DNA from: Styela clava | Lineage: Eukaryota | Direction: 5' to 3' | DNA length: 64,000 nucleotides | NCBI RefSeq assembly: GCF_964204865.1 | Contig: NC_135254.1 | Span: 11,842,001-11,906,000 of the forward strand | In this document: piece after piece, positions 17,991-63,902 of the stretch | Numbering within the stretch: position 1 is the first letter of the stretch | How the letters are laid out: every line of letters starts with the position of its first letter | The notes under the pieces: generated by a model | What the model was told of the DNA's origin: nothing | The model's input: only the letters and a program-made list of their open reading frames with translations | Database searches by the model: none | Program-made: the position numbers and the translations under genes

Positions 17991-18691
17991 AAAATGAATT
18001 GAAAACCTCAATGAAGTCTCCAACATGAGTTTGATGGGCAGTTCCAATTGCAGAAAAGTGCTAAAGTATTTCAATATGAATAGCCCATCTAAGTGTTTGC
18101 AACTATTATGATTCTCATATACCTTTAAGCTTCAAGACTTCTTGTTTAATACATTTTATAGCACTGATAGCAGCAGGGATTAGAGCCTGCGTTAGGTCGG
18201 ATTGGCGGAACAGAAAATCATATTTGGAACAGCATAAGTGTAAAAATTCCCCTTAAATACTAACTAATACCTTGAATCAGTGGCGGCGCGTGGTCATTTT
18301 AACAACCGGGGCAAGCTACTGCGGGACCAAGTCACCCCCATCTACGGGGACAGGATGAGCGCTGTAAGTTCTCCCATCATTTTACGAGTATAAAAACCAT
18401 TCCATCGGTAACAACCAATCGGCAAAAGCGACAATGTTTAACGATAAGAAAGTGTCTTTAAAACCGGTCCAAGTCAAGGGATTAATAAATATAGACATAG
18501 TTTATTTTGAAACCTCTTTCAAAAGGAAAGGCAATATTTACCCAGATAAATACAATGACATATTACCAGAAACTTCGGGAAAACAGACAAAACCTAAAAT
18601 AAGGTTTAAAACGTTACTATGAAGAAAGGAAAGGTAATGCAAAGATAAGGACATGCGTCGCTCACTCATAGATATATATGCTGCTAGACTT

Positions 18692-20038: not shown

Positions 20039-20568
20039 CAGTGGCGGCGCGTCAATAGGGCCAACCGGGGCAATGCCCCGGTTGTTTTTTCGGTATAATA
20101 AAAAATATTCGAAAAATACCTCAATATCGGTTGCACAGACTGTCTACACTAGCCATATTCTCCCGACATGGTTCATTTTTCGCTCGCAAAGCCTTCGCCG
20201 AACGTCGACGGGGCGACGCCGATTTTGCCCCGGTTGCTCATTGTATATCGTATTCTATCTTTTATCTTCCACTCGCCGCGTTTGTCTCGTTTGTTTTCTG
20301 TTTCTTTTACTACATCATCGGGGCTAGCCCCGAAATCATGATGACACAATGCCGACGTTTCTTACAACAACGTGTTGACATATTCACGCATTCCTTCTGG
20401 TTCGTTGGTTGCTTAAAGAGTTGATAGTTTCCTCGCCTTCGTTTTTGTCGCTTGTTTCGCTATTTGAATCAGTTAGACCCCTTTAGTCCATTTGCTTTCG
20501 ATTTTCCACATTCCTTTTGAGCTCCTCACTTCTTTCCGGCTTCGCATTTCTTAGCCTTAGACCTCATA

Positions 20569-21317
20569 ATGAATAAGGTTGATGCACTACTTCGCACTCC
20601 GTTTTCGCAGCTGCCGCTGGAACAAAAATTAGAGGTACAACGTCTTGGGCCTTATCAACCAAAAAATTGTTCACTGGAATAATCCCATGACGGAGGAAAG
20701 CGTCGGCGTACATTCTGCGCAGAAACTTGGTATAAAAAACACGAATGGTTGTGTTACAGCGAGGACGAAAATGCACATTTTTATGTTTTTATTGCCTACT
20801 TTTTGCTACCGCCCGTGACTCACGTTGGTGTAAATTTGGTTTCAGAGATCTTAAACATTTTTCCGAGCGTGCCAGGGATCATCAATCTTCTATGGAGCAT
20901 CTGGACAATGCAGTAAAATACCGAACATTCGGAAATGTTAATATTGCAGCACAGTTGGATGAAGGACGCGCGGTTTCTATTCGTCGGCACAACCAAAACG
21001 TCGAGAAAATCCGTCATGTTCTCGGTCGATTGATAGATGTTTTGAAGTTCATTGGTTGTCACGAGCTGTCCCTCCGTGGGCACGATGAACGGGCTGGCTC
21101 TTCTAATAGAGGGGTATTTTTGAATATGGTGGAATACACCGCATCCCTAGATACAGTATTGAGAGATCATCTTGATGCCGCAACTGTTTCGAAAGGGACA
21201 TCTAAGGATATCCAAAATGATTTGCTCGACTCAATGTATAAAATTTATTTACAACATTTGGCTCTGGAAATTGAGAATTGCCAGTTCCTTTCGATTCAGT
21301 CTGACGAGACAACTGAC
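20569..21317 (+). pseudogene. hAT transposase N-terminal half (TTF-type zinc finger, DUF4371-like region, first catalytic Asp)
   Basis: MNKVDALLRTPFSQLPLEQKLEV..., in-frame TAA, WYKKHEWLCYS, frameshift, CFYCLLF...LSLRGHDE...NRGVF...SKDIQNDLL...SIQSDETTD, then an abrupt TIR. Confidence 0.9.
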
Positions 21318-38951: not shown

Positions 38952-40656
38952 GAGGGGTTCCAAACCGCAGCCCGCGGGCCAATTACGGCCCGCGTAACGA
39001 TTTAAAATGGCCCGCCGAACTTGAGTGAAAAAGTTTAACACTTCATGTGGTACGTTTGAGTTTTAGATTCCGTCTATCCTTACATCATTATCACAGTTTA
39101 AGCACTTTTATTTCGTAACAATTGAATTATACTGGTATATTACGCTCGTATGTATACGTATGGGTATTAGGATTACACACCGCAGTATTTTAGATACCAT
39201 ATTAGCCATATATTAAGAAAGCTTGCAGATGTCACAAAACAAAAAGTAGGCACTGAAAACAGACATTTTTTAGATGAATGGCAGTGTTTTTATTTCTTTA
39301 TTGGAAAAAAATCAAACTTCAGCGATTTGTCTTCCTTGCCAACAAAAGATTTCAGTTCTGAAGGAATACAACATTATGCGCCTTTATGATCAGTTGACGC
39401 GCGTATTTCAAAATTTAATTCATTGCTTGATTCGTACAAAAGTCAAACAAACATGTTCAAAAAAATGTGAAATGTGTAACAAAACAAGCCATAAGTAGCC
39501 AAACATACGATGCCATATGCTAGATGAGCAAGTAACTTCATTAGTCACTATAAGTTGTAAATTACTTGCTGAAAGCCGTGCTTGTTATTTATTCCTCGGG
39601 AATTCTATCAGCTAAATATTATAATTATTAATTTCATTACATAACAAACTGCGATGCTAGGTGTATCTAAAATCAAGCTTTGAACCTATTTTGGTGCCTA
39701 TTTCTCAAAATTTTCTCAGGCCGCTTAAGCGCGCCCTGAACCCCAGCCGTATCGTCGCGCACTTTTCCTCGCTCCCCTTTTCTGGCCCTACAATTTTATC
39801 CTGCTGTGTATTTTGGCTCGCCGACAATCAACTCGGGGGACCCCCTCATGTACATCGTTTCTTAAATACATACCAATTTTTGAGAATACAAATAGTTTCA
39901 TCGCTAATAGCAAATTATTTACCACCCCTAAATTTCGAAACACCCACCCCCCCCCCAAAATTAAAAGCTGGGGAACATACTGGCTGCAGGTCCAATCCGT
40001 GTATGTCACAACTGCTAATTCAAAATGCCATTTTGAAATGCAAAACATTACGAGAACGGGTTGAACAAACTCTTTTGTAATGTCCGGGGCATTGCGCAAA
40101 CAGAAAATGCGAGCTGTGCTATGTCCGTCGCATCTGCTCTTGGCCAACAGCTAGCTACTGGTAATAGAATGGAAAGTATTTTTATGTGCCTCTATTAACG
40201 ACGTTTCACGTTCACTGAAAATCTGTAATGCATTTTTACAAATTGACCCATAACGTTGTAAGCCTTATTGACAGCCAAAGATGAATACCAAAACAGGCAT
40301 AAACGTTTTTCTTAAACTGAAGGGAGAAGCTTTGACTTCCGTGCGTCATTGAAACCTCTTCAATCAGCATTCGTCTGATTCAGCTGAAATTGGCTATCAT
40401 GTAACTACAATTTCACGACTACCGCTATAATCAACACAATTAACTGATCTTCTTGTTTAACTTTAGCTTTTATAAAGTGCATGTTAACGAATGACTGTAT
40501 TGCATACTATGGAAGACAAAATAGCCTATTATTTCTCCATGAAAAACATCAACATCAAAATCTAGTTTCAGTTTAGTTGTCGCAGCATCAGGCGGGCCAG
40601 ATTGAATTACCTTACGGGCCGGATACGGCCCACGGGCCGTAGTTTGCCAATGTCAG
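38952..40656 (+). mobile_element. Decayed Buster/SPIN-like hAT element with a remnant of the transposase N-terminus, interleaved with other repeats
   Basis: Left end with ggcccgc repeats; 39230-39385 reads, with a frameshift, KVGTENRHFLDEWQCFYFFI..SAICLPCQQKISVLKEYNIMRLY (GTF2IRD2/SPIN-like zinc-finger start); right end ggcccacgggccgtagtttgccaatgtcag. Confidence 0.6.
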
Positions 40657-40842
40657 GTCTAGCCTTACGTGACTACAACATGACCCTGTGAACAGTTGTT
40701 TTTCAACAGCAACCAATAGTTTCACATACGGGCCACGAGCAAGGCAGTTTACGGGGCAGTCTAGCACGTAGCTTTCTCGGTACTCCTGAAGTATGCGTAC
40801 CAAGATGGCGAACACCGGAGGGTAGTATGTGTACCAGGTTAA
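40526..40842 (+). repeat. 317-bp direct repeat, copy 1 (outer flank of the inverted CYP duplicate)
   Basis: Colinear with 48700-49016; I count about 8 substitutions. Confidence 0.95.
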
Positions 40843-42525
40843 GATTTGTTTGAAAACTTAAGTGGATTGTAGCACTGAATGTAAACGTTCGTATTCAACA
40901 ATATGTCTTGAAATGCCTACCTATCCAACATATAGTGAATACTAAACACAAATTGATCTAAATAAAAATAGCTTTAAGATGTACGTGAACGTACAGCCTT
41001 GCTCGGAAAGAATGGCCTGAATAAGCGCCGTATAAAAATATATATTATAATTACCAATATGATAATTATAATTATGAAACATATTTCCCAATATGACATA
41101 TACAACGTTTCCTCTTTCTTTACCACTGCCCTATGTATGAATTCATTTGGCCATCTGTTGAAAAAAACCAAAGAAATAAATCATATATATATTATAAGAA
41201 GATTGCTATCACGAAGACACGCACTACACAACGTGAATTTAGCATTGAAATAGTTTCCAAAAATTGTCTCGGTAAAATATCTATCTGCAAAACACTATCA
41301 TCATTATTACTTAGTGTTGCTTTATATAACTAGAGCGGGTTCATTTATGCTGTTTTCGAGTTAGCGCTGTGTCCTTTCGCGTGATCTTCATATTATTCAA
41401 AGCAACGAAAATTACGCATCGGAGGTCATTACGTCACGCAAGTTGCATCGGGTTGCAACACAGTGTTGCCATCCGGATCACGAGTTGGCACACAAAGTTG
41501 TTCGTCGTGATGTAATTCTTAACAACGCCAAATTGAGTGGTGGTGACAAAGATTTTGCAACGTGGAACCTAAACAACATTATCTTCTGTTAGAAAGTGAA
41601 TGAAATAGTGAGATAACCTATATTTTCGCAAATAATATTATTATAATTTTAGCTGTTCCGCAATTTCGACGCCGCAGGTCATAATATTGGTTTGATTGTT
41701 GATTATGATGTTAATGAAGCAAGTTTTGATTTGAACAGCATAAAATCATCTGATCAAGCGTGAACTAACACGATGCAGTCCTTGTGATACATTTTCATGC
41801 TCGCTCGCTGCTGCAATGGAAAGGAGTATAAAACTTAAAATAACAGCAATTCCTATTCTTGTTACCATCGACAATATATCAGTAGCTCTTTATCACGAAA
41901 ATTTAGTTCGCTAATTTTCCACAGCCTTATTTCGAATTTAAGCTCGGAATGTTCAACTTCGGAAGCATACAGATGAACAATCATATATAGTAATTCAAAC
42001 ATGATGAACATATATGTGACAAATGCTGTACATTTATAGAAACTATGTTCAACCCCTCTTCTAGTAGTTCCATCCTATTTTCTACTTCATTTCGTCTTGT
42101 TTACGTATGTGCATGCAATGAAACAATCTACGAAGTTGAAATAACGTGAATTGCGATACCATTTTATATGCATATTTTCAGAGGAATTTTAATGCGCTAG
42201 TGACACAAATTGTGATCGCGTGTAAAAGACGCATGAAATGTGATGACAGTTACTCACGAAATGGTTGCAAATACATTAAATCAATGATGTCAAATATATG
42301 AAGACACAAAGTTATATTTTGTTACACTTTTATTTTTGATTTTTGCAGTATATTTTTCGTTTATTGATAGCTTAACATTGCATGAAATACAAAATCAGTA
42401 GTTGTAAAGTAATCAATATTCGGAGTCATTTCTTGTTGTGGTCATAGTGACCGAATTGGTAAAAATTTAAAAAAATGTATAAATAAACAAAGTTCGAAAG
42501 TCAATCTTATTTCTTCCTTTCACAT

Positions 42526-45500
42526 TTACTCTGCTACATTTCTTGGTTCCACCTTCAAATCGAAGTTCACTTCAGGAGCAAGGGTATTGGTGAATTTGAA
42601 TTTCATGGGCGCCTCCTGTGAAAGTAACTTAATATGTCTTGAGTACGTCATTTTAATAACGTTAAATATACTTAATGAAAACAAAAAGACAAATGCACTC
42701 CCAAGCTGTAACAGAATATAATTGTATTATACATTGAAGTAATTTTTTGATTTCTATGAGTAACGTATAACAACCATATTGTCCACAAGAGCATACCCAA
42801 TGTTTGTCATCACGTAAAGCCCGTATCAATAATTAACTTTATCACATAGCGTAACGAGATGATTCAATAAATAATTCGTGATTATAATGAAGCTAATATA
42901 GAAGTGTTTACAAACCGGTGTATTCTCTGCAGGTTTAATAGTAAACTGGTGTAAAATCTTCGCTAGTGCCATCTTGACTTCTATCAGTGCAAATCTCAAG
43001 CCAATGCAATTTCTCGGTCCTGCTCCAAACGGTTGAAACATCATCGGATCAATTTGGCTTATGTCGCGCATTCTGAAAATATCAACTCCAAATAAATGAG
43101 CGGTCAATACTGGACATCTACATTTTCATTTTTCATACTTCAAACTGTTATCATGCTTCTGGGGTTTTAAAGGCTACAAATCGCAATCGCTCGTGTGTAG
43201 GGAAAAAAATAAGAGATACTAGAATTGAACATATTGATATTTCGTATTTATCATAACAGAACAATGTGGTGAAAAACTGCAGTGCATTTCATAGTCGTCT
43301 CACGCCAAAATTCATTGCTCGCTTTATTTTACGAGCATTCCAGGATATTGATTCGGTTTCAGTTGGACTAACTACCCACCATTCCTCTGTGTTTTTATGC
43401 CAGTGGATCCATATGCATATAATACAAGGATGCTATAGCAAAATTAAAAACTACTATTCTAAATAATTCCATATAAATCCACCACGTGGTAATATTTTAA
43501 GTAATTCAAGAGTTTTGGTGCACATCTAGTGGCAAATCTAGCTCAAGTCTTGAATTATGTAGTTTAGTTGAATCATGTATGTCTGGGACGACTGACTTTG
43601 GTCAGATGAAACGTTCCAAAAATATCATTGTGCTAGTGTGAAGCGAAACTATTGAATTACTCGGAATATTAGCACGTGTTTGCTTTATATTTTCATGGAA
43701 ATATTGGTCAATATTTAAATATCATATTTGACTTTCTCATTATACGAAATTGCTTGCTGTTTATACCATTTTTATCAGTTATGGCAAATATTACATTGAA
43801 CTAAATTGACTATATTTAATGTCTATGTAGTACAAAAAAAATGGGTAATTCTAAATTAAATCTTAAGCTGCTCAGCCGTTGCTAAATGTTTATTGACCAT
43901 TACTGTTTAATTATATAAATGAGTTGAATTGAAAAAAAAAAAGATACCTTTCCGGTTTATAAGCAAACGGCTCGTCCCAATACTCAGGGCCATGTGACAG
44001 TCCATACATCGGTATGGCAACCAACAATCCTGCTGGTATTGTGAGGCCATTGATTGTTGTTTCTCTTTCAGCTATGCGAGCCTTTCTAAACATAAATATT
44101 TACGATGGAAGGTTCTACAAAGAAATGCATTTTACCCATAAATACACTCATAATTCAGAACGAAAGCATTATATAACTTTACGTTGCACTAAATATTGCA
44201 CACGGAAAAAACCTAAAATTTGCAAATTTTCATCCTATTGTTCAACAGTCCAATTTTTGGAGTTTCAAGAATATTTTTTAGTTCAAAATTGTTCGTACTA
44301 TACAATTCGCCTTTTTACCCACAAAAAATAAAAACATTTAAAATAAAACGTACTTTATAATTGGCGTATAAAGTCTATAAGAGTTTCATTGATACACATG
44401 TCCAGAAACTTCAAGCCATTTATACCATCATAATCCAGTTTGCCCTGAATAATCATTAAAAATGTTATTATTATGCTGCACATCACGAATTAAGTATTGT
44501 GTACAGCGCATTGGGATCTTGTCACAAGTAACAAAAAATCTTTCCCATTTGAAAAACAAATTTGCAGGCATAGACAGTATGGAAGTCAATTTAATGTATT
44601 TCTGTGGCATTCGAAAAGCTTGATTGATTTTACGTCAAAAGGGTCCTAAAAAGCAGAAACTACATTAGAAATTAAATCTGTTCATAACATATATACATGA
44701 GTTTTTATCATTTCATCTCTTTCTTCTTGAACTTTGGCCTGTATTTCCGGATGTCGGGCAAAATTGAAAAAGAAACTAAAAACGAATTATTAATACACGG
44801 CGATAATGCACTGGTTGTAATTGTAATAGTATTTATTATTTTGAAGAAGAGAAATATTTATAAAATGTAGTTGTTTTATCAGTGCACGTTATGGTATATC
44901 TGGAGGTTCTGGAACGTCTGGACAGAAATTTTCAAGTTGTTTTGAGAATGTCAGAACACAATTTCGGAATAACATATTACGTGAGTATAAAGCGTTGATT
45001 AATTGCCTTTTATACAGCATGCTAACATTGTTTCACAGCTAAACTGCTGGTCATTAACTAAAGCACTTACTCTTTTGAATTGGAAACTCCCCCATTGTTC
45101 TCAACCTTCTTATTTAATGATACAATAGCGTTATCAGCACACCATTCCATTATCGTCGTCATTTGCCTCAACTTTGCGGAGGAAAAAGTTAGTGTCAGTG
45201 TGTTTCTATAACAATATTATTGCAAATATATTCGTACCAATATGGTAACATAATTAAGTGCATCGAAAACCAGGAAGCTTCATGAAGTCAAGTATTTCTG
45301 TTTTAATACAGACATTATACGTGAAATAAATATCAATTAGGGCCGGGTTTTGCAACCATTTATCTAATGTGTACATAAATAAATATTGGACCTCCTGAAG
45401 TATGCGCACCAAGATGGCGCACAGCCTGAACTCAGGTTGTGTACCAGGTTAGGGTTCAGGTTATGCGACATCTTGGTGCGCATACTTCAGGAGTACCTAA

Positions 45501-48425
45501 ATATCACAGTAATGACGAAGAACTAATGGATATTAATAATACTACAGAAAATATAAATCAAAATTCCTCCATAAGAACAACAAAACTCTAAGAAGAACAA
45601 CTCAACGTAGCAGATAAACATTATATTATAATATATACAGATTTTTTGTGAATCACAGTTACGATTAAAATAAAATAATGCATTTTTCTTTGGTATATCT
45701 CGTGATATCAATGTATACCTCATACGTTTCCACTGTTTTAGATCAACATTGGTTAAACTGTTGTTCAACTCTTCGCCGCTAATCTTCAAGAAACGACGCT
45801 AAACATATACAAAAAAATACAATCCCAAAGATGTCAGGCTAGCAACAGAAAGTTGGCAGTTGCCTAAGGTCCTATGTATCGCTTTATGGTAAATGATAAT
45901 TATCATTTAATATATCTTTTTTTTACGTTTAATCCAAACAGCGATATATGATGGTGATTGAAAAAGTCACCCACTCAACAATAAATTTAACAAAATATAT
46001 CACCACTCCACCTGGCGCATTGCAAAATTTGAAAACTCTTTTATGAAAATTTGTCTCAGTATGTCAGGATCATGAATGTGAATCGTTGGGGTAATTCTGA
46101 AGTAAGTCCTGAAAATATTTAAATTTGGTAAATGTACGAAGTACAGTTAGCAAATGAAAAATCTAAAGATTATCCATTTTGCTTTGTTAGGCGTTTCGCT
46201 TTTTCTCGTCTGTATTGATATAAAACGGCTCATGTTTTCCAGATAACTCTGCAACTTCACCGGTGAATTAGGGATTTTTGCCGTCAAGTTGGCGATTGGA
46301 GACTTTGTTTTAAGAATAATTGCAAAAAATTCCTTACTTATATAGAAGCAAAGTATTGAAAATTGTATATTGATGAAATTCACCTACCCGTACACATTTC
46401 CAAACTTTTCTTTGCATTTGTTATCATACCGCAACGCTGCCTGAAAAATTGAAATTCACACGGAAAATTTAGGTGTTTACGAGATTTTTATAACGACGCA
46501 GCAATAAGAGTGCAATGTAACTTTGGCCTCAAAACGTCTTTGAAAATAACACACTAAATTAGGGTTGCCATACCGTCCGGAAAATTCCGGACATGCCCGG
46601 AATTTACGGTTAAATTTTGCGTCCGGGAAGAATTTAAAAATTCTCAAATGTCCGGAATCCGGAATTTTACTGCACCTGCAATCTTACTATGCACACTGCT
46701 AATACAGAACATTGTTATTTCGTACCGCGCGCATATTTTCACTACGAAGTCATGAAAATAGTTATGCACCGTCCGGAATTTTGCTTTTTCAAATATGGTG
46801 ACCCTACACTAAATAGTGAATGTGGCAATGCAGTTCAGGAATAAATTCGTTATTTCAGGTAAAATACATTAAAAAGACCGGAAATTGCTAATTTCGAATT
46901 TCTCCAAATTCATGAATTGGATCGATATAGGACCCGTTGTATATAGACAAACAGATGACAACCAAAAATATAATTGGATCGATGACATATGGTAATTAGT
47001 ATTCCATACTCGAATCGATAACCCCTGATGGAATCGATATCACCATACGCACATACGTGGTATGGTTTCAATTGGATATTCAAAAGGGAGGTATTAAAAG
47101 GTCTGGTATTAGGAGTCGAATCGTCTGTATCAGTGTCGTTTCGTCATGTCTTCATCGTTTGTTCTCCGTGTCTATCTACAATATTAAACTACTTCAACAA
47201 CGTTCAACATCGTTCTTCAACGTGTTTTTATTGGCTAAAATGGTGACAACGTGTTCTTTATTGGCTAAAGCAGTACACATAATTATAGCAACTATAAAAT
47301 AAAAAGCAGGAGAGAAATTTATCCAGATAGTCATTAATAATTTAGCAGTTTTTCCGTCGTTACCGCAAGCTTGAATTGGTAGCCAGTTAAATATGCCTAC
47401 CTCCGCTCCGAAAGTATAAGATAAGTGTCCAAACTTTCGAATTGAACAAGGCTCGTGTGGAATATTAATATTTTTCAGGTATTGCCATTTCCGATGAATA
47501 TAATATCTGAACAAACGAAAAGAGGAAAATGAAACACACTGGAGAAAACTTGTGTACCAGACCATGGCTAAATATCTACCAAACACCTTTTTTAACTATA
47601 ACAATGCCCAATTAAACAATTGCAATTTATTTTAATCAACTAAAAAATGGAAATTAGACATAAATGAATTTGATACATACGAGTACGACACAGTCAGAAT
47701 GTAGCCAAAGCGTATAGGAAGCTTGTCAACGCGGATGGTGGCAAATGGCAAGCTTTACCGACCAAGAGATTACGTCATTCGCGGCGGTTGGAGGGTATGA
47801 CAGGCATTGTCGCATTATACATATATGGGCACGACAGTGTTGTGCTCTCGAGCAAACAAGAGCCCGATGAGATGGAAATTGAATCTCGTTTACGATCCGA
47901 GCAATAAGTATAGTACGTTCCCGATATAGCTATATAAACACTATCCGTATGTTCTAGCATGTCATAGTTAATCAATCATCATTTATTCATCAAAACAATA
48001 TAAGCGTATTATAAGAAAAAAAACCTTATAAATAACAAAAGCTTATTAAAAAGTCTGGGACATTCTGATACAACAATGATCACATTCATTTATTTTTTTT
48101 CTGCTAAAATAACAAAAGACCCAAGGAAAATAAAAATTTCTGGTCTGTGATTTACATACAACTAGTCAGCCCGGAGAGCATGTTGACTGGGATTGTTTCG
48201 AAAAACAAGTCGAAGTATTTAGTCACGTTTTGTGTTTCATTTTTAACCCTGCATTCGAGCCGCAATAACAGTAAGCACAGACGCTGCCAAGGTTCTGCGT
48301 CAAAACTTACTTTAAAAGATTATAAGATAGATATAGTCGTTTATGCGAACTTACCTGCCTAACGCCAATAAGCTGATGATTAAAACCCAAGTCTCAATGG
48401 ATAGAATGTCCAGTGGAGTGATCAT
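42526..48425 (-). pseudogene. CYP3-like cytochrome P450 pseudogene (inverted duplicate)
   Basis: Same exons as 49800-56461, but a ~1.37-kb deletion at ~44770 fuses the start of exon 7 to mid exon 10 (removing the I-helix), and a 2-nt insertion at ~44377 frameshifts the ETLR motif; the heme motif FGAGPRNCIG is still intact. Confidence 0.9.
46560..46806. mobile_element. hAT-type MITE inserted after the duplication
   Basis: TIRs tagggttgccata / tatggtgacccta; 8-bp TSD cactaaat; tccgga subterminal repeats; empty site at ~50960 in the other arm. Confidence 0.92.
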
Positions 48426-48699
48426 CTTTATGCTGTAGCTTCAATCCAATCTTCGAGGCCGATACAACTTGTCGAACCTCTGTCTGTATATCAACTAAAG
48501 AAGCTGTGTTCGAAAACCAACCAAATGCATGCGGGGTAAAAATAAATAAAATGTGGAACTGTTTCAAAACTGATACGGGCAGGAAAACATCTCGGCTAAT
48601 TGAACACATTGATCTTTTTTGTATATTTCAGTAAATATTTGCAAGATATATCAAAAAGGTCGCTCGTTAATTTGATCTTTACCTCGAAGGCAAGTAAAG

Positions 48700-49016
48700 C
48701 TATTATTTCTCCATGAAAAACATCAACATCAAAATCTAGTTTCAGTTTAGTTGTCGCAGCATCAGGCGGGCCAGATTGAATTACCTAACGGGCCGGATAT
48801 GGCCCACGGGCCGTAGTTGGCCAATGTCAGGTCTAGCCTTAGGTGACTACAACATGACCCTGTGAACAGTTGTTTTTCAACAGCAACCAATAGTTTCGCA
48901 TACGGGCCACGAGCAAGGCAGTTTACGGCGCAGTCTAGCGCGTAGCTTTCTCGTTACTCCTGAAGTATGCGTACCAAGATGGCGAACACCGGAGGGTAGT
49001 ATGTGTACCAGGTTAA
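48700..49016 (+). repeat. 317-bp direct repeat, copy 2 (inner flank of the inverted CYP duplicate)
   Basis: Colinear with 40526-40842; only this copy continues into the remainder of the MITE it ends in. Confidence 0.95.
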
Positions 49017-49799
49017 TCCATAATTTTAGGTACAAATACTCGTTAAAAGCGAGGCAAAATGGAAGTAGGCATTGAAGATGATGTTCTGGGTTTAGGAGCC
49101 TGGACACGCCACATGTGTACATTGGTTCTTTCCACAGCAGGCGTTCACGTGGTAGATTGCACCATTGAGTAACGTCGAGAACTATGTAAACCTTATGTGA
49201 ATGAAGATGTGTGTATTTTATGACGAATAGATATTTTTATATTGGTAGACAATTATACATTCGAGATTTGGCAGTCGCGCGCTAGATACCGTTAACATAT
49301 AAGCTCGCGCTGAGACACGGAAATATTTATTGCTCACGGTAGTAGACAACTCGGTACATTGCTTGAAAATATCGTATCGCCATTTGCCAGGGCCGGCGGT
49401 GACTAGGTTGCGTTGCATAAGTTGGTAAATGAGTTAAGGTGGAAAATAACATCAAGGGTTAACATAAAATTATTGGTACTAGACCAGATAAAAATAGAGA
49501 TATTTCTCATACAATCATTGCGGAAACTTTACTTGGCTTCGAGGTAAAGATCAATTAACGAGCGACCTTTTTGATATATCTTGCGAATATTTACGGAAAT
49601 ATACAAAAAAGATCAATGTGTTCAATTAGCCGAGATGTTTTCCTGCCCGTATCCGTCTTGAAACAGTTCTACATTTTATTTATTTTTACGCCGCACGTAT
49701 TTGGTTGGTTTTCGAACACAGCTTCTTTAGTTGATATACAGACAGAGGTTCGACAAGTTGTATCGGCCTCGAAGATTGGATTGAAGCTACAGCATAAAG

Positions 49800-52700
49800 A
49801 TGATCACTCCACTGGACATTCTATCTATTGAGACTTGGGTTTTAATCATCAGCTTATTGGCGTTAGGCAGGTAAGTTCGCATAAACGACTATATCTATCT
49901 TTTAATGTAAGTTTTGACGCAGAACCTTGGCAGCGTCTGTGCTTACTGTTATTGCGGCTCGAATGCAGGGTTAAAAATGAAACACAAAACGTGACTAAAT
50001 ACTTCGACTTGTTTTTCGAAACAATCCCAGTCAACATGCTCTCCGGGCTGACTAGTTGTATGTAAATCACAGACCAGAAATTTTTATTTTCCTTGGGTCT
50101 TTTGTTATTTTGGCAGGAAAAAAAATAAATGAATTTGATCATTGTTGTATCAGAATGGCCCAGAATTTTTAATAAGCTTTTGTTATTTATAATGTTTTTT
50201 CTTATAATACGTTTATATTGTTTTGATGAATAAATGATGATTGATTGACTATGGACATGCTAGAACATACGGATAGTGTTTATATAGCTATATCGGGTAC
50301 GTACTATACTTATTCCTCGGATCGAAAATAAGATTTAATTTCCATCTCATCGGGCTCTTGTTTGCTCGGAAGCACAACACTGTCGTGTCCATATATGTAT
50401 AATGCGACAATGCCTGTCATACCCTCCAACCGCCGCGAATGACGTAATCTCTTGGTCGGGAAAGTTTGCCATTCGCCACCATCCGCGTTGACAAGCTTCT
50501 TATATGCTTTGGCTACATTCTGGCTGTGTCGTATGTATCAAATTCATTTATGTCTAATTTTCATTTATTAGATGAATAAAAAAAATTGCAATTGTTTAAT
50601 TGGGCATTGTTATAGTTATTATAGGGGTTCGGTAGGTATTTAGCCATGGTCTGGTACACAAGTTTTCTCCAGTGTGTTTCATTTTTCTTTTTTCGTTTGT
50701 TCAGATATTATATTCATCGGAAATGGCAATACCTGAAAAATATTAATATTCCACACGAGCCTTGTTCAATTCGAAAGTTTGGACACTTATCTTATACTTT
50801 CGGAGCGGAGGTAGGCATAGATATTTGGCTACCATTTCAAGCTTGCGCCGGTAACGACGGAAAAACTGCTAAATTATTAATGACTATCTGGATAAATTGC
50901 TCTCCTGCTCTTTATTTTATAGTTGCTATAATTATGTGTACTGCATTGCCACATTCACTATTTAGTGTGTTATTTTCAAAGACGATTTAAGGCCAAACTT
51001 ACATTACACTCTTATTGCTGCGTCGTTATAAAAATATCGTAAACACCTAAATTTTCTGTGTGAATTTCAATTTTTCAGACAGCGTTGCAGTATGATAACA
51101 AATGCAAAGAAAAGTTTGGAAATGTGTACGGGTAGGTGAATTTCATCAATATACAATTTTCAATACTTTGCTTCTATATAAGTAGGGAATTTTTTTGCAA
51201 TTATTCTTAAAACAAAATCTTTTATCGCCAACTTGACGGTAAAAATCCCTTATTCACCGGTGAGGTTGCAGAGTTATCTGGTAAACAGTTTTGAGAAAAC
51301 ATGAGCCGTTTTATATCAATACAGACGAGAAAAAGCGAAACGCCTAACAAAGCAAATTGGATAAACTTTAGATTTCATTTGCTAACTGTACTTCGTACAT
51401 TTACCAAATTTAAATATTTTCAGGACTTACTTCGGAATTACTCCAACAGTTCACATTCATGATCCTGACATACTGAGACAAATTTTCATAAAAGAGTTTT
51501 CAAATTTTGCAATGCGCCAGGTGGAGTGGTGATGTATTTTGTCAAATTTATTGTTGAGTGGGTGTTATCAATTAATTTTAACAACTTTTTCAATCACCGT
51601 CATATGTCGCTGTTTGGATTAAACGTAAAAAAAGATATATTAAATGATAATTATCATTTACTATAAAGCGATACATAGGACCTTATGCAACTGCCACCTT
51701 TCTGTTGCTAGCCTGACATCTTCGAGATTTTCTTTTTTTGTATATGTTTAGCGTCGTTTCTTGAAGATTAGCGGCGAAGAGTTGAACAACAGTCTAACCA
51801 ATGTTGATCTAAAACAGTGGAAACGTATGAGGTATACATTGATATCACGAGATATTCCTTGAGAAATACACGAGAAAAATGCATTATTTTATTTTAAACG
51901 TAACTGTAATTCACAAAAAAATTTGTATAATCTAATGTTTACGTGCTACGTTAAGTTTCTCTTCTTAGAGTTTTGTTGTTCTTATGGAGGAATTTTGATT
52001 TGTATTTTCTGTAGTATTTATAAATATCCATTGGTTCTTCGTCATTTCTATAATATTTAGGTACTTCTGAAGTATGCGCACCAAGATGTCGCATAACCTG
52101 AACCCCAACCTGGTACACAACCTGAGTTCAGGTTGTGCGCCATCTTGGTGCGCATACTTCAGGAGGTCCAATATTTATTTATGTACACATTAGATAAAGA
52201 TTGCAAAACCCGACCCCAATTGATATTTATTTCAAGTATAAAGGCTGCATTGAAACAGAAATACTTGACTTCATAAAGCTTCCTGGTTTTGGATGCACTT
52301 AATTATGTTACCATATTGGTACGAATATATTTGCAATAATATTGTTATAGAAACACACTGACACCAACGTTTTCATCCGCAAAGTTGAGGCAAATGACGA
52401 CGATAATGGAATGGTGTGCTGATAACGCTATTGTAGCATTAAATAAGAAGGTTGAGAACAATGGTGGAGTTTTCAATTCAAAAGAGTAAGTACTTTAGTT
52501 AATGACCAGCACTTTAGCTGTGAAACAATGTTAGCATGCTGTATAAAAGGCAATCAACCAACGCTTTATACTCACGTAATATGTTATTCCGAAATTGTGT
52601 TTTGACATTCTCAAAACAACTTGAAAATTTCTGCTTAGACGTTCCAGAACCTCCAGATATACCATAACGTGCACTGGTAAAACAACTTCATTTTTTAAAT

Positions 52701-55700
52701 ATTTCTCTCCTTCAAAATAATAAATACTATCACAATTACAACCAGTGCATTATCGCCGTGTATTAATAATTCGTTTTTAGTTTCTTCTCTCGAATTTCGT
52801 TGGATGTGGTCTGCTCTGCAGCTTTTAGTACCAAAGTAGATTCAATTAACGACACTGAAAATGAGCCCGAAATTGTTAAGAAGGCTAAAGAGCTTATGAA
52901 AGGTGGAGGAGTTTTGAGCAAGATGTTTGTTTTACTTATAGGTAATAATTTATTGTTTTCAGATGGATATAATATTCTCATAAACATAATTGCACTTGGT
53001 CTATTGTCACTCAAATTTCGTGCAAAATAAGATTTCAACCACATATCATCTAGTTTTATTGTATTCTGTAGAGAAAGTGAAAAATTGTGCTCTTTGGCAT
53101 CAAGTTAAATATAGATTTACATATACATTGTTCGTTGAAGCTGTTGAAGGACGTTCTGTTGATAAATAACAAATGATACCGCAAATATATTTCTCATGAG
53201 TAATACTGTTGTTGTATTTTGTTAAAGAATGTTTTGTTACATCTAGATATTTTTTCCGTAAATAGCTATTCACTGATATTTGATAAATTTATCCACATTT
53301 ATTTATAATAAACACAGTGTTGTCTGAGTTTCTCGAGAAGGTCCTCGAAAAATTGAATATTCCGTTGGTTCGTGGTGAGTCGCTCAAGTACTTCAGGAGA
53401 CTTACGGATCACGTGATAGAAAAAAGGAAAAATAATCCACATGATACGGTATTTCTTGATTTATTACTATACGAAATGTGTGTAGCAAAGCACAGCGGAC
53501 AAATTTGTGTTGCAGCATCAGGAATGATACCTTACATATCATGATATGATACCTTACTCAAGTTTAACGATCTGATAAACTACGAAAAATATACACAGAA
53601 TGAATATCTCTGGTAAACTTTTGGGAAACCCACAACTGGCAGGTGTAAATTTTCTTATATTTAAGCTATTGACATGTGACTGCATATATATACCATAGAT
53701 TGTTTCCTCATACAGGGACGTGTTGATTTGATGCAATTGATGTTAGATGCTGAAATATCTCCGGATAAAGTAAAGGAGGGCGCCGAAAAAGGTTTTTGTT
53801 TCACTATTTTTTTATGGTTATGAAGTCAAGTAATTGGGTAGTTTTCACATGAAGACACCAATCCAGCAGAAACGCTTTAAAAATATAGCATGCGGATCTC
53901 GATTAATGTAAAGCCTGTCGGTCTCTATATATATAACTGAGTATTACGTGTAGGTTTCTTTTTTTAATAACGAATCATGTAAAACTCCAACATGGTCTGG
54001 CAGCCGAGCCATATCACACGCACATTTACAAAAGCCTGGAATTTACTGCAGTATGGTTTACCTAGGTTTGACAAAAATCGAAATCATTGGTAATTCTATG
54101 CTGATGATAATGGCTGGATACCAAAACACTGGAAACCTGATGAGTTGGACTTCCTTCAATTTTGCTCGACATCCGGAAATACAGGCCAAAGTTCAGGAAG
54201 AAATAGATGAAATGATAAAAACTCATGTATGTTATAAACAGATTTAATTTCTAATGTAGTTTCTACTCAGCTTTTTAGGACCCTTTTGACGTAAAATCAA
54301 TCAAGCTTTTTGAATGCCACAGAAATACATTAAATTGACTTCCATACTGTCTATGCCTGCAAATTTGTTTTTCAAATTGGAAAGATTTTTTGTTACTTGT
54401 GACAAGATCCCAATGCGCTGTACACAATACTTAATTCGTGATGTGCAGCATAGTAATAACATTTTTAATGGTTATTCAGGGCAAACTGGATTATGATGGT
54501 ATAAATGGCTTGAAGTTTTTGGACATGTGTATCAATGAAACTCTTAGACTTTACACGCCAATTATAAGGTACGTTTTATTTTAAATGTTTGTATTTTTTG
54601 TGGGTGAAAAGGTGAATTGTATAGTACGAACAATTTCGAACTAAAAATGTTCTTGAAACTCAAAAAATTGGACTGTTAAACAATAGGATGAAAATTTGCA
54701 AATTTTAGGTTTTTTCCGTGTGCAATATTTAGTGCAACGTAAAGTTATTAAAGTTATATTGAAATTGGGAATTGATAAGAACATTTTATATAATCACTAA
54801 GGAAGGTAATGTTGGTTAATTTGTCATGTAATTTTAGCTATATAGCCTGCCCTATATAATGCTTTCGTTTTGAATTATGAGTGTATTTATGGGTAAAATG
54901 CATTTCTTTGTAGAACCTTCCCTCGTAAATATTTGTGTTTAGAAATGCTCGCATAGCTGAAAGAGAGACAACAATCAATGGCCTCACAATACCAGCAGGA
55001 TTGTTGGTTGCCATACCGGTGTATGGACTGGCACATGACCCTGATTATTGGGACGAGCCATTTGCTTATAAACCGGAAAGGTATCTTTTTTTAATTCAAC
55101 TCATTTATATAATCAAACCATAATGGGCAATAAACACTTAAAGCAACGACTGAGCAGCTTAAGAATATAATTTCAAAATTACCCAGTTTTTTGTACTACA
55201 TAGACATTAAATATAGTCAATTTAGTTTTAATGTAATATTTGCCATAACTGATAAAAAAATGGTATAATGAGCAAGTCAAATATGATATTTAAATATTGA
55301 CCAATATTTCCATGTAAATATAAAGCAAACACGTGCTAATATTCCGAGTAATTCAATAGTTGCGCTTCACACTAGCTCAATGATATTTTTGGAACGTTTC
55401 ATTTGACCAAAGTCAGTCGTCCCAGACATACATGATTCAACTAAACTACATAATTCAAGAATTGAGCTAGTTTTGCCACTAGATGTGCACCAAAACTCCT
55501 GGATTACTTAGAATATTACCACGTGTTTGATTTATATGGAATTACTTAGAATAGTAGTTTTTAATTTTGCTATAGCATCCTTGTATTATATGCATATGGA
55601 TCCACTGGCATATAAACACAGAAGAAGGATAAGTAGTTAGTCCAACTGAAACCGAATCAATATCCTGGGATGCTCGTAAAATAAAGCGCGCAATGAATTT

Positions 55701-56461
55701 TGACGTGAGACGACTATTAAATGCACTGCAGTTTTTCACCACATTGTTATGTTATGATAAATACGAAATATCGATATGTTCAATTCTAGTATCTCTTATT
55801 TTTTTCCCTACACACGAGATGATCCCTTGCGATTTGTAGCCTTTAAAACCACAGAAGCATGATAAAAGTTTGAAGAATATTGACCGCTCATTTACTTGGA
55901 GTTGATATTTTCAGAATGCGCGACATGAGTCAAATTGATCCGATGATGTTTCAACCGTTTGGAGCAGGACCGAGAAATTGCATTGGCTTGAGATTTGCAC
56001 TGATAGAAGTCAAGATGGCACTAGCGAAGATTTTACACCAGTTCACTATTAAACCAGCAGAGAATACACCGGTTTGTGAACACTTCTATATTAGCTTCAT
56101 TACAATCACGAATTATTTATTGAATCATCTAGTTACGCTATGTGATAAAGTTAATTATTGATACGGGCTTTACGTGATGACAAACATTGGGTATGCTTTC
56201 GTGAACAATATGGTTGTTATACGTTACTTTTAGCAATCAAAAAATTACTGCAATGTATAATACAATTATATTATGTTACAGCTTGGGAGTGCATTTTTTT
56301 GTTTGTTTTCATTATGTATATTTAGCGTTATTAAAATGACGTACTCGAGACATATTGAATTACTTTCACAGGAGGCGCCCATGAAATTCAAATTCACCAA
56401 TACCCTTGCTCCTGCAGTGAACTTCGATTTGAAGGTGGAACCAAGAAATGTAGCAGAGTAA
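49800..56461 (+). CDS. Cytochrome P450, clan 3 (CYP3-like), 14 exons, apparently intact
   Basis: Exons approx. 49800-49870 (MITPLDILSIETWVLIISLL), 50705-50810, 51079-51131, 51424-51520 (DPDILRQIFIKEFSNF), 51752-51831 (WKRMR), 52351-52485 (LTPTFSSAKL), 52781-52941 (DVVCSAAF), 53318-53448, 53716-53791 (DLMQLML), 54066-54226 (AGYQNT), 54480-54568 (ETLR), 54943-55080 (PER), 55915-56071 (PFGAGPRNCIG), 56372-56461. Confidence 0.93.
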
Positions 56462-56874
56462 ATGTGAAAAGTGGAAATGAGATTGACTTTCAAACTTTGT
56501 TTGATTATACATTTTTTTTTAATTTTTACCAATTCGGTCACTATGACCACAATAGGAAATGACTCCGAATATCGATTACTTTACAACTACTGATTTTGTG
56601 TTTCATGCAATGTTAAGCTATTAATAAACAAAAAATAGACTGCAAAAAGCAAAAATAAAAGTGTAACAAAATATAACTTTCTGTCTTCATATATTTGACA
56701 TCTTTGATTTAATGTATTTGCAACCATTTCGTGAGTAACTGTCACCGCATTTCATGCGTCATTTACACGCCATTAAAATTTGTTTAGTCACTAGCGCAAT
56801 TAGAATTCCTCTGAAAACATGCATATTAAATGGTATCTCAATTCACGTTAATCAACTTCATAGATTGAATTATT

Positions 56875-57110
56875 GGGTGCTCCCGTAGTATGTGAATCAA
56901 GATGGCGGGCCCCGAAACGTAGTATGTGTGCCAAGTCAGGGTTAGGCCATAATTTCAGGTACAAACACTACGGGAGTCACTTGGATAGTCCCCGAACTCG
57001 TACCAGAACTAAAATAAGGTAAATTGGAATAAAATTATGGCCTAACCTTTACCTGGTACACGTACTATGTTCAGGAGCCCGCCATCTTGGTGCACATACT
57101 ACGGGAGCGC
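56875..57110. mobile_element. Longer member of the palindromic MITE family, present in the right arm only
   Basis: TIRs gggtgctcccgtagtatgtg / cacatactacgggagcgcc; absent at the homologous site ~42120. Confidence 0.85.
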
Positions 57111-59403
57111 CTTTTATTGCATGCACATACGTAAACAATACCTGGACTGAAGACCTGAAGTAAAAAGTGGGATGAAACTACTAGAAACATAGTTGCTATA
57201 GTATCCATCAAAATTTGAAAAATATACTATATATATTACTGTTAATCTGTATGCTTCCGAAGTTGAACATTCCGAGCTTAGGTTCGAAACAAGGCTGTGA
57301 AATCCGTAAAAATTTACTCCCGACTATGGGTTAAGAAAAATTTATACGACTCTTGAGTCCTAAAAATTTCGACTCTGGCTTCAAACTGAGAGCTATGTAG
57401 CAGGGCGAACCACTGACCCGCCACGATTTTCCGGTAAACCTCTACGCTATGAATTATTAATATTTCAGTGATAAATATTGAACCCTTTTGCAAGCGCATA
57501 AGCAAGGGGGGTAGTATAATGTTTTGGATGTACACGAGAATCAGATGCTACTTTGCTGTTTACTTTATGCCGTAAGGCGTGAACAATACCGAATTAAACA
57601 ACATCGGAAGGTTTCCGCTTTCATTGGTCGATTAGGAATTACTTAGCTAGACCTAGTAGGCTATAAACTAATGAAGGTTGTGACAGATTAGAAACGCCTT
57701 GTGTTTGTCCGAACCGATTACAGTTGAATGACGACAGAATGAAAGCATTTTGTCGTGAAATGCTAACCCTCACGACGATTAAAATTTATCTACTGTAGGG
57801 TTACATTAGACCCGACATGTTTTGCCTGATTAGACCTGGGAAACAAGCAACAACTCCAAATTTAGAAATATAAATTTTCGGGATAAAGAGCTACGTATAT
57901 TGTCGCCTTCAATGGTAAAGCATAGTAATTGCTGTTATTTTCAGTTTTATGCTTACCATTGCAGCAATAAGCGATCATGAAAATGTATTACAAAGAGTAC
58001 AATGTGTTAGTTCCCGCAGGATCAGATGATTTTATGCTGTCTAATCCTAAACTTGCTTTATTAATATTTACATAATAATCAACAATCAAACCAATAATCG
58101 GACCTGAGGCGTCGAAATTGCGAACGGCTGAAATTAAAATAACATTATTTGCGAAAATACACGATTATTTCATTTACTTTCTAACAGAATATAATGTTGT
58201 TTATGTTCCACGTTGCAACATTTTCGTCACCACCACTCAATTTGGCGTTGTTAGTATTACATCACGACGAACAACTTGGTGTGCCAACTCGTGATCCGGA
58301 TGGCAACACTGTGTTGCAACTTGCGTGACGTAATGACCTCCAATGCGTAATTTTCGTTGCTTTGAATAATATGAAGATCACACTAAAAGACACAGCGCTA
58401 ACTCGAAAACAGCATAAATGAATCCGCTCTAGTTATATAAAGCAACACTAAGCAATAATGATGATAGTGTTTTGCAGATAGATTATTTTATCGAGACAAT
58501 TTTTGGAAACTATTTCAATGCTAAATTCATGTTGTGTAGTGCGTATCTTCGTGACAGCAAACTTCTTATAATATATGATTCATTTCTTTAGTTTTTTTCA
58601 ACAGGTGGCCAAAGTGAATCCACACACAGGGCAGTGGTAAAGAAAGAGAAAATGTTGTATATGTGATATTGGGAAATATATATGTTTTATAATTATAATT
58701 ATCATATTGATAATTATAATATATATTTTTTTACGGCGCTTATTCAGGCTATTCTTTCCGAGCAAAGCTGTACGTTCACGTACACCTAAAGCTATTTTTA
58801 CTTAGATTAATTTGTGTTTAGTATTCACTATATATTGGATAGGTAGGCATTTCAAGACATATTGTTGAATACGAACGTTTACATTCAGTGCTACAATCCA
58901 CTTAAGTTTTCAAACAAAATCTCCTTAAGGCTGCGCTTCAGCGTGATTGGTAGAGAGAATAGCATATCGACAACAACACGAATACGTCACTCGCTACTCG
59001 TAGTAGATAAAATGTTTGCTTCCATTCCCTCATTATAGTGTAGAATAAGAATACAATGACGGTACTTGTAGAGCTAATATGCGACAATCTGAGAGTCTTT
59101 ATTCAACATGTCTCTCAAAAGAAATCAAGAATCATAAGGCCAGGTGTAGCATAGTTATAGGAATCAGAAACCGATACCAATATCTAATTCTAGTTGATAT
59201 AAATTTGTAAGCGGACATATATCTGTATATAATTCTAGTGAATGTTACAATAGGCTACTACATTAGCTCAAGATGTAAGGATTTCACACATAGGTAGTAC
59301 AGTTGTGCCAATGTGCCAAGACTTTTGCTTATCACTATAATAACTTGAATTTTAGACTCTGACAAATTGTAATAATATAAACGAGTTCAACAGCTATATA
59401 TAT

Positions 59404-62400
59404 ATGATGATAACTCCACTGGACATTTTATCTATTGAATCGTGGATCTTGATTGCAAGCGTGATATTACTCATCAGGTTGGTATGTACGATTCGTTACT
59501 GTCACTTCCGACTGGATTTGTATTACACCAGTAAATATATGCTCGAACTCTGCAATTTCTGGTGTCAAAAGAGAAACATCGTTTGCTTGAACCATTGCTA
59601 TGTACGCCTATATATATTTTTATTCATTACGTAATGTAATAGTGATTTTCCATTAGTTAAAACGAACAGTTTACGATATGTTTTGGGCACTTTCTGATTT
59701 GAGCCAATTTTATTTTTAGGTATTATTTGAACCAGAAATGGAGGTATTTCGAAAAGCTCGGCATTCCTTATAATCCACCGTCTATACTTAAACTCGGAAA
59801 TATACTTTCCGCCTTCGATAAAGATGTAAGTCGATTGAGTTCATAGGATTTGTAACTATAAAGTTGTTGCATAGGTGTAATTAAGATGAATTGGATGCTG
59901 AAATCCGTAATGCTTTATTTTCAGAATCATCTCAACTTCTGTAATTTATTTGTATATTTACGACTAATCAATCCTTAGGTTTATACACAGCGAGCTGTCA
60001 AGGAAACGAATCTTGTACAACGATCAAAAACGATTTTAATTTAGACATAAATTATTGCTCAAACAAATTTGAACAATAAATGCAGGCTTTCTCAAATACA
60101 AGTTCACAAAAGTACATACTATTGAATGAAAAATTGAATGACTGAAACATAAGTTAAGAATGTATTATGCAATAAAAAAATATTCCGATTAATTATCGTC
60201 CATTCATATTGAAAATAATTTGCTATTTAAGTAGGCTTTGGTTGTTAATGTTTATGTTTTAACGTACTGACAAATCGTCTTTTTTTGCCAAAAATAAAAA
60301 AAACACGTTATTTTTGTAGAATGCGTTCGAATATGACAACCAATGTAAGAAGAAGTATGGAAATATCTGGGGGTATGAAATTTTACTTATTAAGCAATAA
60401 ATTCAATTTTGAATGTACTTGTCGACAGTTGCAGTGTGTAAAAAATACTGACATTCTTTGCTGCCCTATAATTACACGGTTATGTTAGTTAAATAGTTCG
60501 TTTCACATATTCAAGATTTAAAAAGAATGTAAGTAAATTGGAATAATTTTTTCGATCATGGAATAATATAATGAAATATTTATATATTGTTGGTTTTTAT
60601 CACCTCATTATTTTTTACAGGGCATTTACAGGGGTAACGCCAAGTATATCGGTTCACGATCCTGATATTTTGAGACAAATTTTTATCAAAGAATTTCAAA
60701 CATTCCCAGACAGACAGGTTAGTGCTTCTGATACGTCTATTTCAAATAATATCGCCTTTTTAATTGGATACACATTGGAATTTTGTGTATCAGCGTAGAA
60801 GAAAATATTTATAGGAAGATAAAAATTTGATAATGAAGTGTTTTATACCCTAACATTTTTAACATGATTATGTGTATACTGTATAGGATACTACTATGTT
60901 CGTCTAACTTAAATCTTCGCTGTTCCAATGCCGCTTGTTTCTAACGTAATATGCATAATGTATAGTGTATATGGAAATTCATTGGCAGACATTATATAGC
61001 CTTATATCAGCTCTTAGGTAAGGCCATTAAACTCTCTCGTTGAGCGGTTTCTGTTCAATACATTTTGTTGGTTAACATTTTATCAACTTCATTTAATTAT
61101 ACGCTATTTTAACTTTTAGAAAAGATTGACCAAGGTAAATGGCAAAGAGATGAATACTGGCCTAACTGCCGTGCAGGGGAATCAATGGAAGCGGATAAGG
61201 TAAGGATATAAAAAAAGCAATTTGCGGCCGTTCAATATGAAAGTCATACTTGGATATTATTCAAGTTGTCATTCATGTCTTATATGAATTGGAATCAGTC
61301 AACTTACCTTTTAATTACGGATGTCAATGATACACACAGTGCCAGTTTATTTCATGACAGTTCTATGGTTTCGAGTGCTGTTTTTCATGATACTGTGGTT
61401 TTAGTGTCGGTTGCTAATTAGATTTAGATTCTGAACCCCGTAATTTAAATCATGCGCATGCCAGAAGTAACTCGAAAATTTATTTTCTCGAAATATGTGG
61501 ACAAATCAGAAGTGTTTTCATCATGAATTAGAAATAAAATGATTTTTTGTCAAAATGCTATATATTATTTTTACAGAAATACCATGACACCAACATTTTC
61601 TACTTCTAAACTGAAGCAAATGTGTGGTATAATCGACTGGTGTGCCGGCAATACTGTTGATGCACTGAATAGAAAAATTGAAAATAACGAAGGGGTGTTT
61701 AATTCAAAAGAGTAAGTTTTTACTACTTACTATTTTGTTTAGTAACTTGATGAAATGAACTTTTTTCTAGAATTTTGACAATAATGCATCAAGGTCATTC
61801 TAAAGATTACTAATTTTGTGATTCCAGGATCTTTTCCCGTCTTTCATTGGATATAGTGTGCTCAGCAGCATTCAGCACCAAAGTTCACTCGCAGGATGAT
61901 AGAGTAGAAGAGCCAGAAATTTCCAAAAATGCCAAAAAGTTGTTTAGCGGATCAATACTCAGTCCTCTTATCATATTGTTCCGTAAGTTGAACTGGAAGT
62001 ATGACTCAGATTGAATAATAAACTGTATAATTTTGCTGTAATCGACGCACGCCTTGGTTTGTGGATATGTTGCTTGTTTTACCTCTTCTGTAACGGGCAC
62101 ACGGACAATTAAGCAACGAAGGTTGTCAATTCGGCCACCACACTATTTCATTAAGCTTTCAATGACCAAAACTTTTTGGCATAGAATTTTTTGCGTCTAA
62201 ATATAAATTATTGTGCAGCCGGTAAGTGCTAAGCAGAATTAACTTTATCGTCCAAATGTGATTCATCAGATATTTGCATGTTGTTATTCTCAACGACAAA
62301 AATATATTATTCATCCAGGACATTGTTTTTTGTGTTTATGATTTTAGTTATCTTTCCACCTCTTGAAAAAATGTTTGCAAAATTCAACTTCTCAATGATG

Positions 62401-63902
62401 GGCGGTAATGGGTTAAATTACTTTAAAAAACTAGCAACACACGTAATGAATCAACGACAAGAAAATTCACATGCACACGTAAGTAAGCGATTTTTCATTT
62501 TATAACTGAAGATATTTATTGCAAAAGGAAGATTCCTAATGTGTTAATTAATTGAGTGCACATTTAGTTGTTTTTTGGAGTGCCATGCCCATACGATATA
62601 TTCGTGAAAGATTTTGTAAACATGACTAAAATCTGTATTCCAGGGCCGGGTAGATCTCATGCAATTGATGTTGGATGCTGAAGTATCAGAAGAGAAAATC
62701 AAACAAGGCGCGGAAAAAGGTAACTGATCTAACAGCATGTACAGTATATATGTGATTGTCACAACACGTTGCTGAAACTTTACTCCAAATCTGCAGATTT
62801 CAACTGTGCTATCTACCTATTTTATGCTTATTTTTAAACGAAAAAGGGGAAACATAGAAAATTAAATGTTCATAATTAGTAAATTTATAATTTTAAATAA
62901 TTTCACTAAAACGATAATGGTGGCACTATTCGTACACAGTTTTTAGGTGATAATAGTGACGGAATATCACAGACTCATTTCAATCGAAATTGACGACGTT
63001 AGCTTGTTTTCAGGAATGACAAAAACAGAAATCATTGGTAATTCGATGTTAATGATTTTGGCTGGTTACGAAAACACTGGGAATACAATGAGCTGGACAG
63101 CTTATAATTTAGCCCAACATCCGGAAATACAGGTCGAAGTTCAAGAGGAAATCGATGAAATGATGAAAGTTGAGGTAAATACAGCTGAGCCTATTTGAGT
63201 TTGTAAACTATAACAACCTTCTTTCCATTCAACATCACGGAAACGGTTTTTGCTTTCCATTTTATTCTGGGCACAGCGAGCAAACATTTTTGTTCAAATA
63301 AATGACGTCGCATACACAAAAGCAAATAAATCGAGCATAAAGTGAAAAAACTTCCCACGCATTCGTGTAGCATAACGAATCGTACTCCTTATAGCTCAGA
63401 TACGGCTGAACGCTATTGGTCCTTTCGATTATTAGCTTGAAAGCTTTAATAATATTTTATACAGGGTAAATTCGACTACGAAAGCGTGACGAAATTGAAG
63501 TTGTTGGACATGTGCATCAACGAAACCCTCAGACTCTACATGCCGATTCTAAAGTATACATACTTTATTCATAATAAAAATATTTTTCTTCAAAATCCAA
63601 TTGCTTCAATAATCAATATGTGTGAATGGTTGGTTTTTCGTATAATAAGATTCATACGAATTCTACATGTCAATATACAAATGATCTTTGAAGTAGGAAA
63701 ATTCGACACCTTGCGTTAAAAATGAATCTGTACCCACCGAATTAACTGGAACATTTCTTTACAGAAATGCTAGATATTGTGAGAAAGAAATCACTATCAA
63801 CGGTTTAACAATTCCAGAAGGGATAATGATAAGTATACCATCATATGGACTGGCACACGATCCTGAATATTGGGACGAGCCTTATCAATTTAAACCCGAA
63901 AG
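59404..63902 (+). CDS. Second CYP3-like P450 paralogue, 3' end outside the window
   Basis: Same exon structure: 59404-59477 (MMITPLDILSIESW), 59720-59825, 60320-60372, 60621-60717, ~61120-61199 (WKRIR), ~61578-61712, ~61828-61982, 62348-62478, 62644-62719, 63014-63174 (AGYENT), 63465-63553 (ETLR), ~63765-63902 (PER); introns not alignable to the first copy, so an older tandem duplicate. Confidence 0.9.

Follow-up and report, generated by a model that had tools for sequence, protein, structure and literature searches.

Rearrangements that duplicate two nearby segments and invert one of the new copies have been described in several settings. In the human duplication-normal-inverted/duplication (DUP-NML-INV/DUP) class, with its copy pattern 1-2-1-2-1, one tail-to-tail and one head-to-head junction are shared by three conformers, and in conformer (a), seen at the PLP1 locus, the distal duplicate lies inverted between direct copies of the proximal one (PMC6902434). 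The dupINVdup class has the same two junctions and paired duplications, with the interval between the duplications inverted (PMC5338099). Inverted copy number variants (CNVs) derived from origin-dependent inverted-repeat amplification (ODIRA) contain an inverted segment, a short spacer and near-blunt joins (PMC10766186), and staggered-break inversions in Drosophila leave duplicates at both breakpoints, the daughters of which mostly decay (PMC1885836). Here we analysed 64,000 nucleotides of the Styela clava genome (NC_135254.1, positions 11,842,001 to 11,906,000 of the forward strand; hereafter the window, with coordinates counted from its first letter), in which a detoxification gene, a cytochrome P450 of CYP3 type, lies next to an inverted and broken copy of itself. 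The shape of this locus is that of conformer (a) of the DUP-NML-INV/DUP class.

Self-BLAST of the window and global alignment gave the order U-A1-rc(C)-A2-B-C-D in the assembly (rc, reverse complement), bearing out the A-rc(C)-A-B-C structure of a preliminary description and its placement. Segment A is a 317-bp direct duplicate (A1, 40526..40842; A2, 48700..49016; both on the plus strand) whose copies differ at 8 of 317 aligned positions (2.5%). Within A1 lie a fragment from the right end of one repeat (40551-40661) and, from the left end of a miniature inverted-repeat transposable element (MITE), a further 62 bp; A2 is adjoined by B as in the parent. The spacer B (49017..49526, plus) had been called single copy and is so among the best candidates of an own-genome search, except for its first ~24 bp, which belong to the MITE; likewise, neither the C exon region nor the C|D edge had a further copy on another contig among the best candidates of an own-genome DNA search. 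The parental copy of C (arm 2, 49527..58921, plus; 9,395 bp) and its inverted copy (arm 1, 40843..48699, minus; 7,857 bp) differ by 356 substitutions in 7,013 aligned columns (5.1%) and by 66 indels in the global alignment; with the 827 bp of A2 and B between them they form the inverted repeat for which a spacer of ~830 bp had been proposed. The two duplicated segments thus enclose a single-copy interval, and the junction display showed one join between their distal ends (J1, 40842..40843, A end to C end, tail to tail, inside the MITE fragment) and one between their proximal ends (J2, 48699..48700, C start to A start, head to head). An Rfam search of 39000-60000 gave 0 matches.

Compared with the human DUP-NML-INV/DUP rearrangements, which extend over hundreds of kb to Mb, this one is small (~10 kb), old and decayed, and no chimeric repeat is present at its joins, whereas two human cases each have one LINE-LINE or Alu-Alu join (PMC6902434). 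The name dupINVdup, which had been applied to the locus, does not fit in the strict sense, as A2-B-C is collinear with the parent and B keeps its orientation, in contrast to the inverted interval of that class (PMC5338099). Unlike in ODIRA-derived CNVs, no third copy remains visible, nor does any fold-back with a loop of 40-80 nt (PMC10766186), and unlike in the Drosophila inversions the A copies are direct and C is ~5 times as long as the largest D. yakuba duplicate (PMC1885836).

We hold arm 2 to be the parent and arm 1 the daughter. The join A|B is ancestral and J1 new, because an 86-bp left-end fragment of the MITE (48955..49040, plus), a member of a high-copy family of ~190-240 bp, runs from A2 across the A|B boundary into B; C|D is ancestral because the upstream region of the neighbouring paralog aligns across 58921; and U|A is ancestral by exclusion only. 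Arm 2 also shares its strand with the paralogs at 59.4 kb and ~73 kb. Fifteen sequencing runs (X1 to X15) were available, and statements on them refer to the longest or best-supported contigs and reads. X1-X4 come from one public sample, S1, and contain 67-70% of the window's words; X5 and X13, which show GT-AG joints, are RNA by our guess, no run being recorded as RNA; and X15 (Hi-C), ~0-2 reads deep on unique sequence, is too thin to inform. Contigs of X5 and X13 read through from A to B to C.

The gene in arm 2 (49800..56461, plus) is intact and spliced and has 14 exons encoding 514 amino acids in an open frame. Among the 15 joints listed of 235, GT-AG joints were found in both X5 and X13 for 11 of the 13 introns. 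All three exons tested matched Pfam p450, and for the two exons tested the closest solved relatives were CYP3A4, CYP3A5 and CYP3A7, which places the gene in the CYP3 clan at the level of exon searches rather than of a tree. It resembles CYP3A-like P450s in this domain and these relatives and is distinguished by its 14 coding exons and by its I-helix (54066-54226), which reads G-Y-Q-N-T as compared with G-Y-E-T-T in CYP3A4. P450s use the acid-alcohol pair at this site to activate oxygen. Three of three paralogs (window 63010-63168, L014 3227-3385 and L020 3131-3304) have G-Y-E-N-T there, and going by these motifs the P450s of this group, the parent gene above all, may have unusual chemistry. 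Upstream of the ATG, one X5 contig (48730-49867) spans 1.07 kb, passing through A, B and the MITE fragment, and then splices, likely reflecting a long 5' leader or upstream transcription. A full-length MITE (56868..57111) is present in arm 2 only.

The copy in arm 1 (42526..48425, minus) is a CYP3-like pseudogene consisting of exons 1-6, a fused exon 7/10 and exons 11-14. Its ATG (48425, minus) and that of the parent (49800, plus) stand head to head 1.4 kb apart, so that the two head-to-head CYP starts previously described are real, but only one of them begins an intact gene. A 1,367-bp deletion (44769..44770, minus; matching arm 2 52787-54153/4) takes exons 8-9 together with the larger part of exon 7 and the portion of exon 10 that encodes the I-helix, and a 2-bp insertion in exon 11 (44376..44377, minus) shifts the frame and leads to a stop before the heme-binding exon; neither the I-helix nor the heme-binding exon is therefore intact in frame. 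Two intronic insertions are specific to arm 1, one of 255 bp (46560..46814), probably hAT-like, which has terminal inverted repeats and a target duplication of 8-9 bp and which contigs of X1, X2 and X13 lack and skip, and one of 440 bp (46830..47269) with a 5-bp target duplication. By its structure the inverted copy has also lost the upstream A-B in gene orientation. Relative to the parent it shows 16 non-synonymous and 16 synonymous differences (non-synonymous divergence, pN, 1.9%, confidence interval (CI) 1.1-3.0; synonymous divergence, pS, 7.0%). No arm-1-specific spliced contig was found among the contigs listed, which says nothing firm on expression.

Neither J1 nor J2 shows long homology or a transposon end, and unequal crossover (non-allelic homologous recombination) and transposition, alternative transposition included, are excluded for this reason: J1 lies 62 bp inside the MITE fragment and J2 is without a terminus, in place of the terminus and short target duplication that transposition would have left. 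J1 has 1 nt of exact microhomology and J2 has none (0 nt), instead of the at most 2-4 nt previously reported for both; the latter values are reached only by allowing a 1-3-nt indel beside the join, which may have been gained since, the event being old. Random joins would be expected to share at least 1 nt in 47% and at least 2 nt in 18% of cases, and the stalling of forks with switching of templates (FoSTeS) or break-induced replication mediated by microhomology (MMBIR) is recognised by 2-9 nt of microhomology or a templated insertion, against the 1 and 0 exact nt of this old event. J1 does cut a MITE, as had been noticed, but no whole element was halved: since full elements measure ~190-240 bp and B is without a right end, the MITE had already been shortened before J1 arose. 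With the right end missing locally, a MITE hairpin as trigger of the rearrangement was rejected.

The most parsimonious cause, and in our view the probable one, is a single templated event of repair or replication in which strands were switched twice. It is the simplest because both switches touch one 317-bp site, as in leaving and re-entering one template; consistent with this reading, the two new junctions and also the two ancestral joins could be defined, and the same configuration has been explained by two switches in humans (Fig S8a, PMC6902434). Coming from the D side, synthesis would have traversed C, B and A; a fold-back spanning 827 nt would have brought it to the start of C, of which it copied 9.4 kb, and it would then have gone back to its first template, 317 bp before the place of departure. 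The new copy, cut off from a correctly oriented A-B, would then have decayed into a pseudogene, its structure and decay being what is observed. S1 suggests that the duplication would be segregating in the species with sub-variants, and allelic recombination, perhaps with short arm-to-arm conversion, may later have reshuffled the parent side. The preference expressed earlier for template switching over unequal crossover and transposition stands as far as the latter two are rejected; switching itself is the simplest cause only, since the microhomology is no more than chance would give and the identical string results from two multi-step routes.

One such route is an eroded inverted triplication (ODIRA or tandem-inversion-duplication), U-ABC-C'B'A'-ABC-D, from which B-C of the first copy and B'-A' of the inverted copy were subsequently deleted. 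The resulting string is identical, and a triplication route is argued for human 1-2-1-2-1 inverted CNVs, with blunt or near-blunt secondary joins expected (PMC10766186), as found here; however, it needs three events, one of them a deletion that must take ~97% of the first copy (estimated from lengths), and we regard it as unlikely; the best inverted match between the break neighbourhoods, 5 nt, is uninformative on this route. The other route begins with a staggered-break inversion, U-A-C'-B'-A'-C-D (a true dupINVdup), in which a crossover between the inverted C arms then flips the spacer back. Both junctions are common to all three conformers (PMC6902434), staggered breaks often leave inverted duplicates in Drosophila (PMC1885836), and the 205-bp perfect run between the arms next to the spacer (P = 0.001) hints at exchange between them; yet a second event is required, and the stagger would measure 9.4 kb around a 0.5-kb inversion, compared with D. 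yakuba duplicates of at most ~1.9 kb (PMC1885836), which makes this history quite improbable.

The divergence between the arms cannot date the event, because alleles differ about as much as the arms do: in one intron contig of X13, 51 of 868 bases (5.9%) depart from arm 2, and this contig has no placement on arm 1 at 96%. Divergence is uneven along the arms (p = 2e-6), amounting to 1.9% in the inner 585 bp and 5.4% beyond. The inner inverted arm is closer to a different allele than to its neighbour. X5 is identical to A2 through B to the start of C over 1,138 nt, whereas X13 joins a different B to seven of the nine listed arm-1 substitutions and the arm-1 insertion within 49552-49826. Of 30 variants checked, 24 matched arm 1, and X13 has these in cis with B. 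Left of the MITE edge (48957/40783), 294 nt of an X13 contig are unlike A and come either from a different allele or from a chimeric contig joined through the MITE. Divergence of the A copies (2.5%, CI 1.1-4.9), pN and divergence of the inner 585 bp are mutually compatible as proxies of age and fit one moderately old event; allelic variation or conversion of the inner part may account for the surplus divergence of the arms.

These patterns bear on a variant of the two-switch event, not a separate class, in which the second switch went onto the homologous chromosome, so that one allele contributed A1 and arm 1, and another A2-B-C. The X5 and X13 contigs are in keeping with it, as are an X2 contig of 594 nt that equals inner arm 1 and the 16 amino-acid changes, to be compared with 23-28 under full neutrality since the split (P 0.07-0.01), and inter-homolog switches have been described in humans (PMC6480824). 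The same pattern would, however, result if alleles had later crossed over in A2 or the early part of B, or if arm 1 had kept ancestral states, and in exons 4-6 X13 sides with arm 2 at seven of the eight listed sites; we judge this variant to be decidedly unlikely. It is similarly doubtful that the locus represents a fossil inter-homolog switch in a wild invertebrate, with the duplication still polymorphic and the order of decay (frameshift, insertions, deletion) readable across living individuals.

The rearrangement itself is real or very probably real. Contig ends of S1 were compared with the branch points of a k = 31 graph of the window: 20 of the 41 ends tested fell on branch points, where ~1.6% per base would be expected, and 21 had no match, from which it follows that S1 holds both arm types. 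The contig starts 48987 and 58889 correspond to branches made by J1, the 30-mer that ends A occurring twice in the assembly, in A1 and A2. The 594-nt X2 contig, without differences from inner arm 1, stops exactly at 48699; this end is off the window-only branch points and needs two continuations, such as J2 and an arm-1-type allele joined to B. These three ends support the junctions indirectly and argue against a mis-join. The frameshift of arm-1 exon 11 is also found in X2, and S1 contigs run unbroken across the deletion edge 52786/44770 (52732-53128, and a 1,104-nt contig at 44770). We infer that S1 combines an unduplicated allele with a duplication still at an earlier stage; S1 may not be independent of the assembly. 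An alternative-B contig ending near 49555 was dropped as a fourth match, being 1-2 bases off the prediction, and the S1 contig depth, which looked like ~2-3 copies of C against 1-2 elsewhere, is not a copy number and was not used.

Several observations weigh against a single two-switch event or against the locus as assembled. No contig or read among those listed crosses J1 or J2. Each of the three contig ends could alternatively stem from an allelic variant at that base, and the arm-1-type sequence of S1, which seems to lack the 1,367-bp deletion, could partly be an allele and not the inverted copy. Since a match of at least 1 nt has a chance probability of 0.47, the junctions give no positive MMBIR/FoSTeS signature over end joining. 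Lastly, the A copies and the arms, which had been expected to be similarly diverged, are about twofold apart (2.5% and 5.1%; Fisher p = 0.046, non-coding p = 0.02); this is not a refutation, as allelic divergence of up to 5.9% confounds the comparison. The lack of junction-crossing reads among those listed and an arm divergence like that of alleles (5.1% vs 5.9%) are also what an assembly artefact would give, namely the head-to-head joining of both alleles of a heterozygous animal. Such an artefact is nevertheless very improbable: the window, in which J1 and J2 are assembled in cis, has no gap (0 N); neither junction offers an overlap for an assembler to join on; a 317-bp duplicate with differences of its own is unlike the residue of a mis-join; the S1 branch points fit both junctions; and arm 1 carries loss-of-function lesions.

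Elsewhere in and around the window, the next two CYP paralogs are 72-83% alike in their upstream regions (58108-59990; L013 7548-9926), and the end of C cuts this upstream region ~480 bp before the start of the second paralog. A further CYP3-like paralog lies on the minus strand ~230 kb away (L020 1544-6732; G000:C5 ~12.13 Mb). At 18278-22103 we found a broken transposase, hAT-like by its motifs, with its halves on opposite strands. The element has three left-type ends (18278, 20039 and 21318) and one right end (22103), with the same 8 bp beside 20039 and 21318, and judging from this arrangement it looks like an element end that inserted into its own gene with inversion. Exon-like frames at 4759-5205 and 13093-13443 (minus) resemble the start of an annexin repeat and a Gly/Pro/Tyr-rich N-terminus of annexin type.

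The rearrangement is of an ordinary, already described kind and brings no new gene function or mechanism. It carries a warning that in a highly polymorphic genome the divergence of duplicates can mirror allelic diversity and not age. It is a clean, small example showing that gene-family copies in a marine invertebrate, in this case a P450 copy that died, also arise by a class of rearrangement familiar from human patients.

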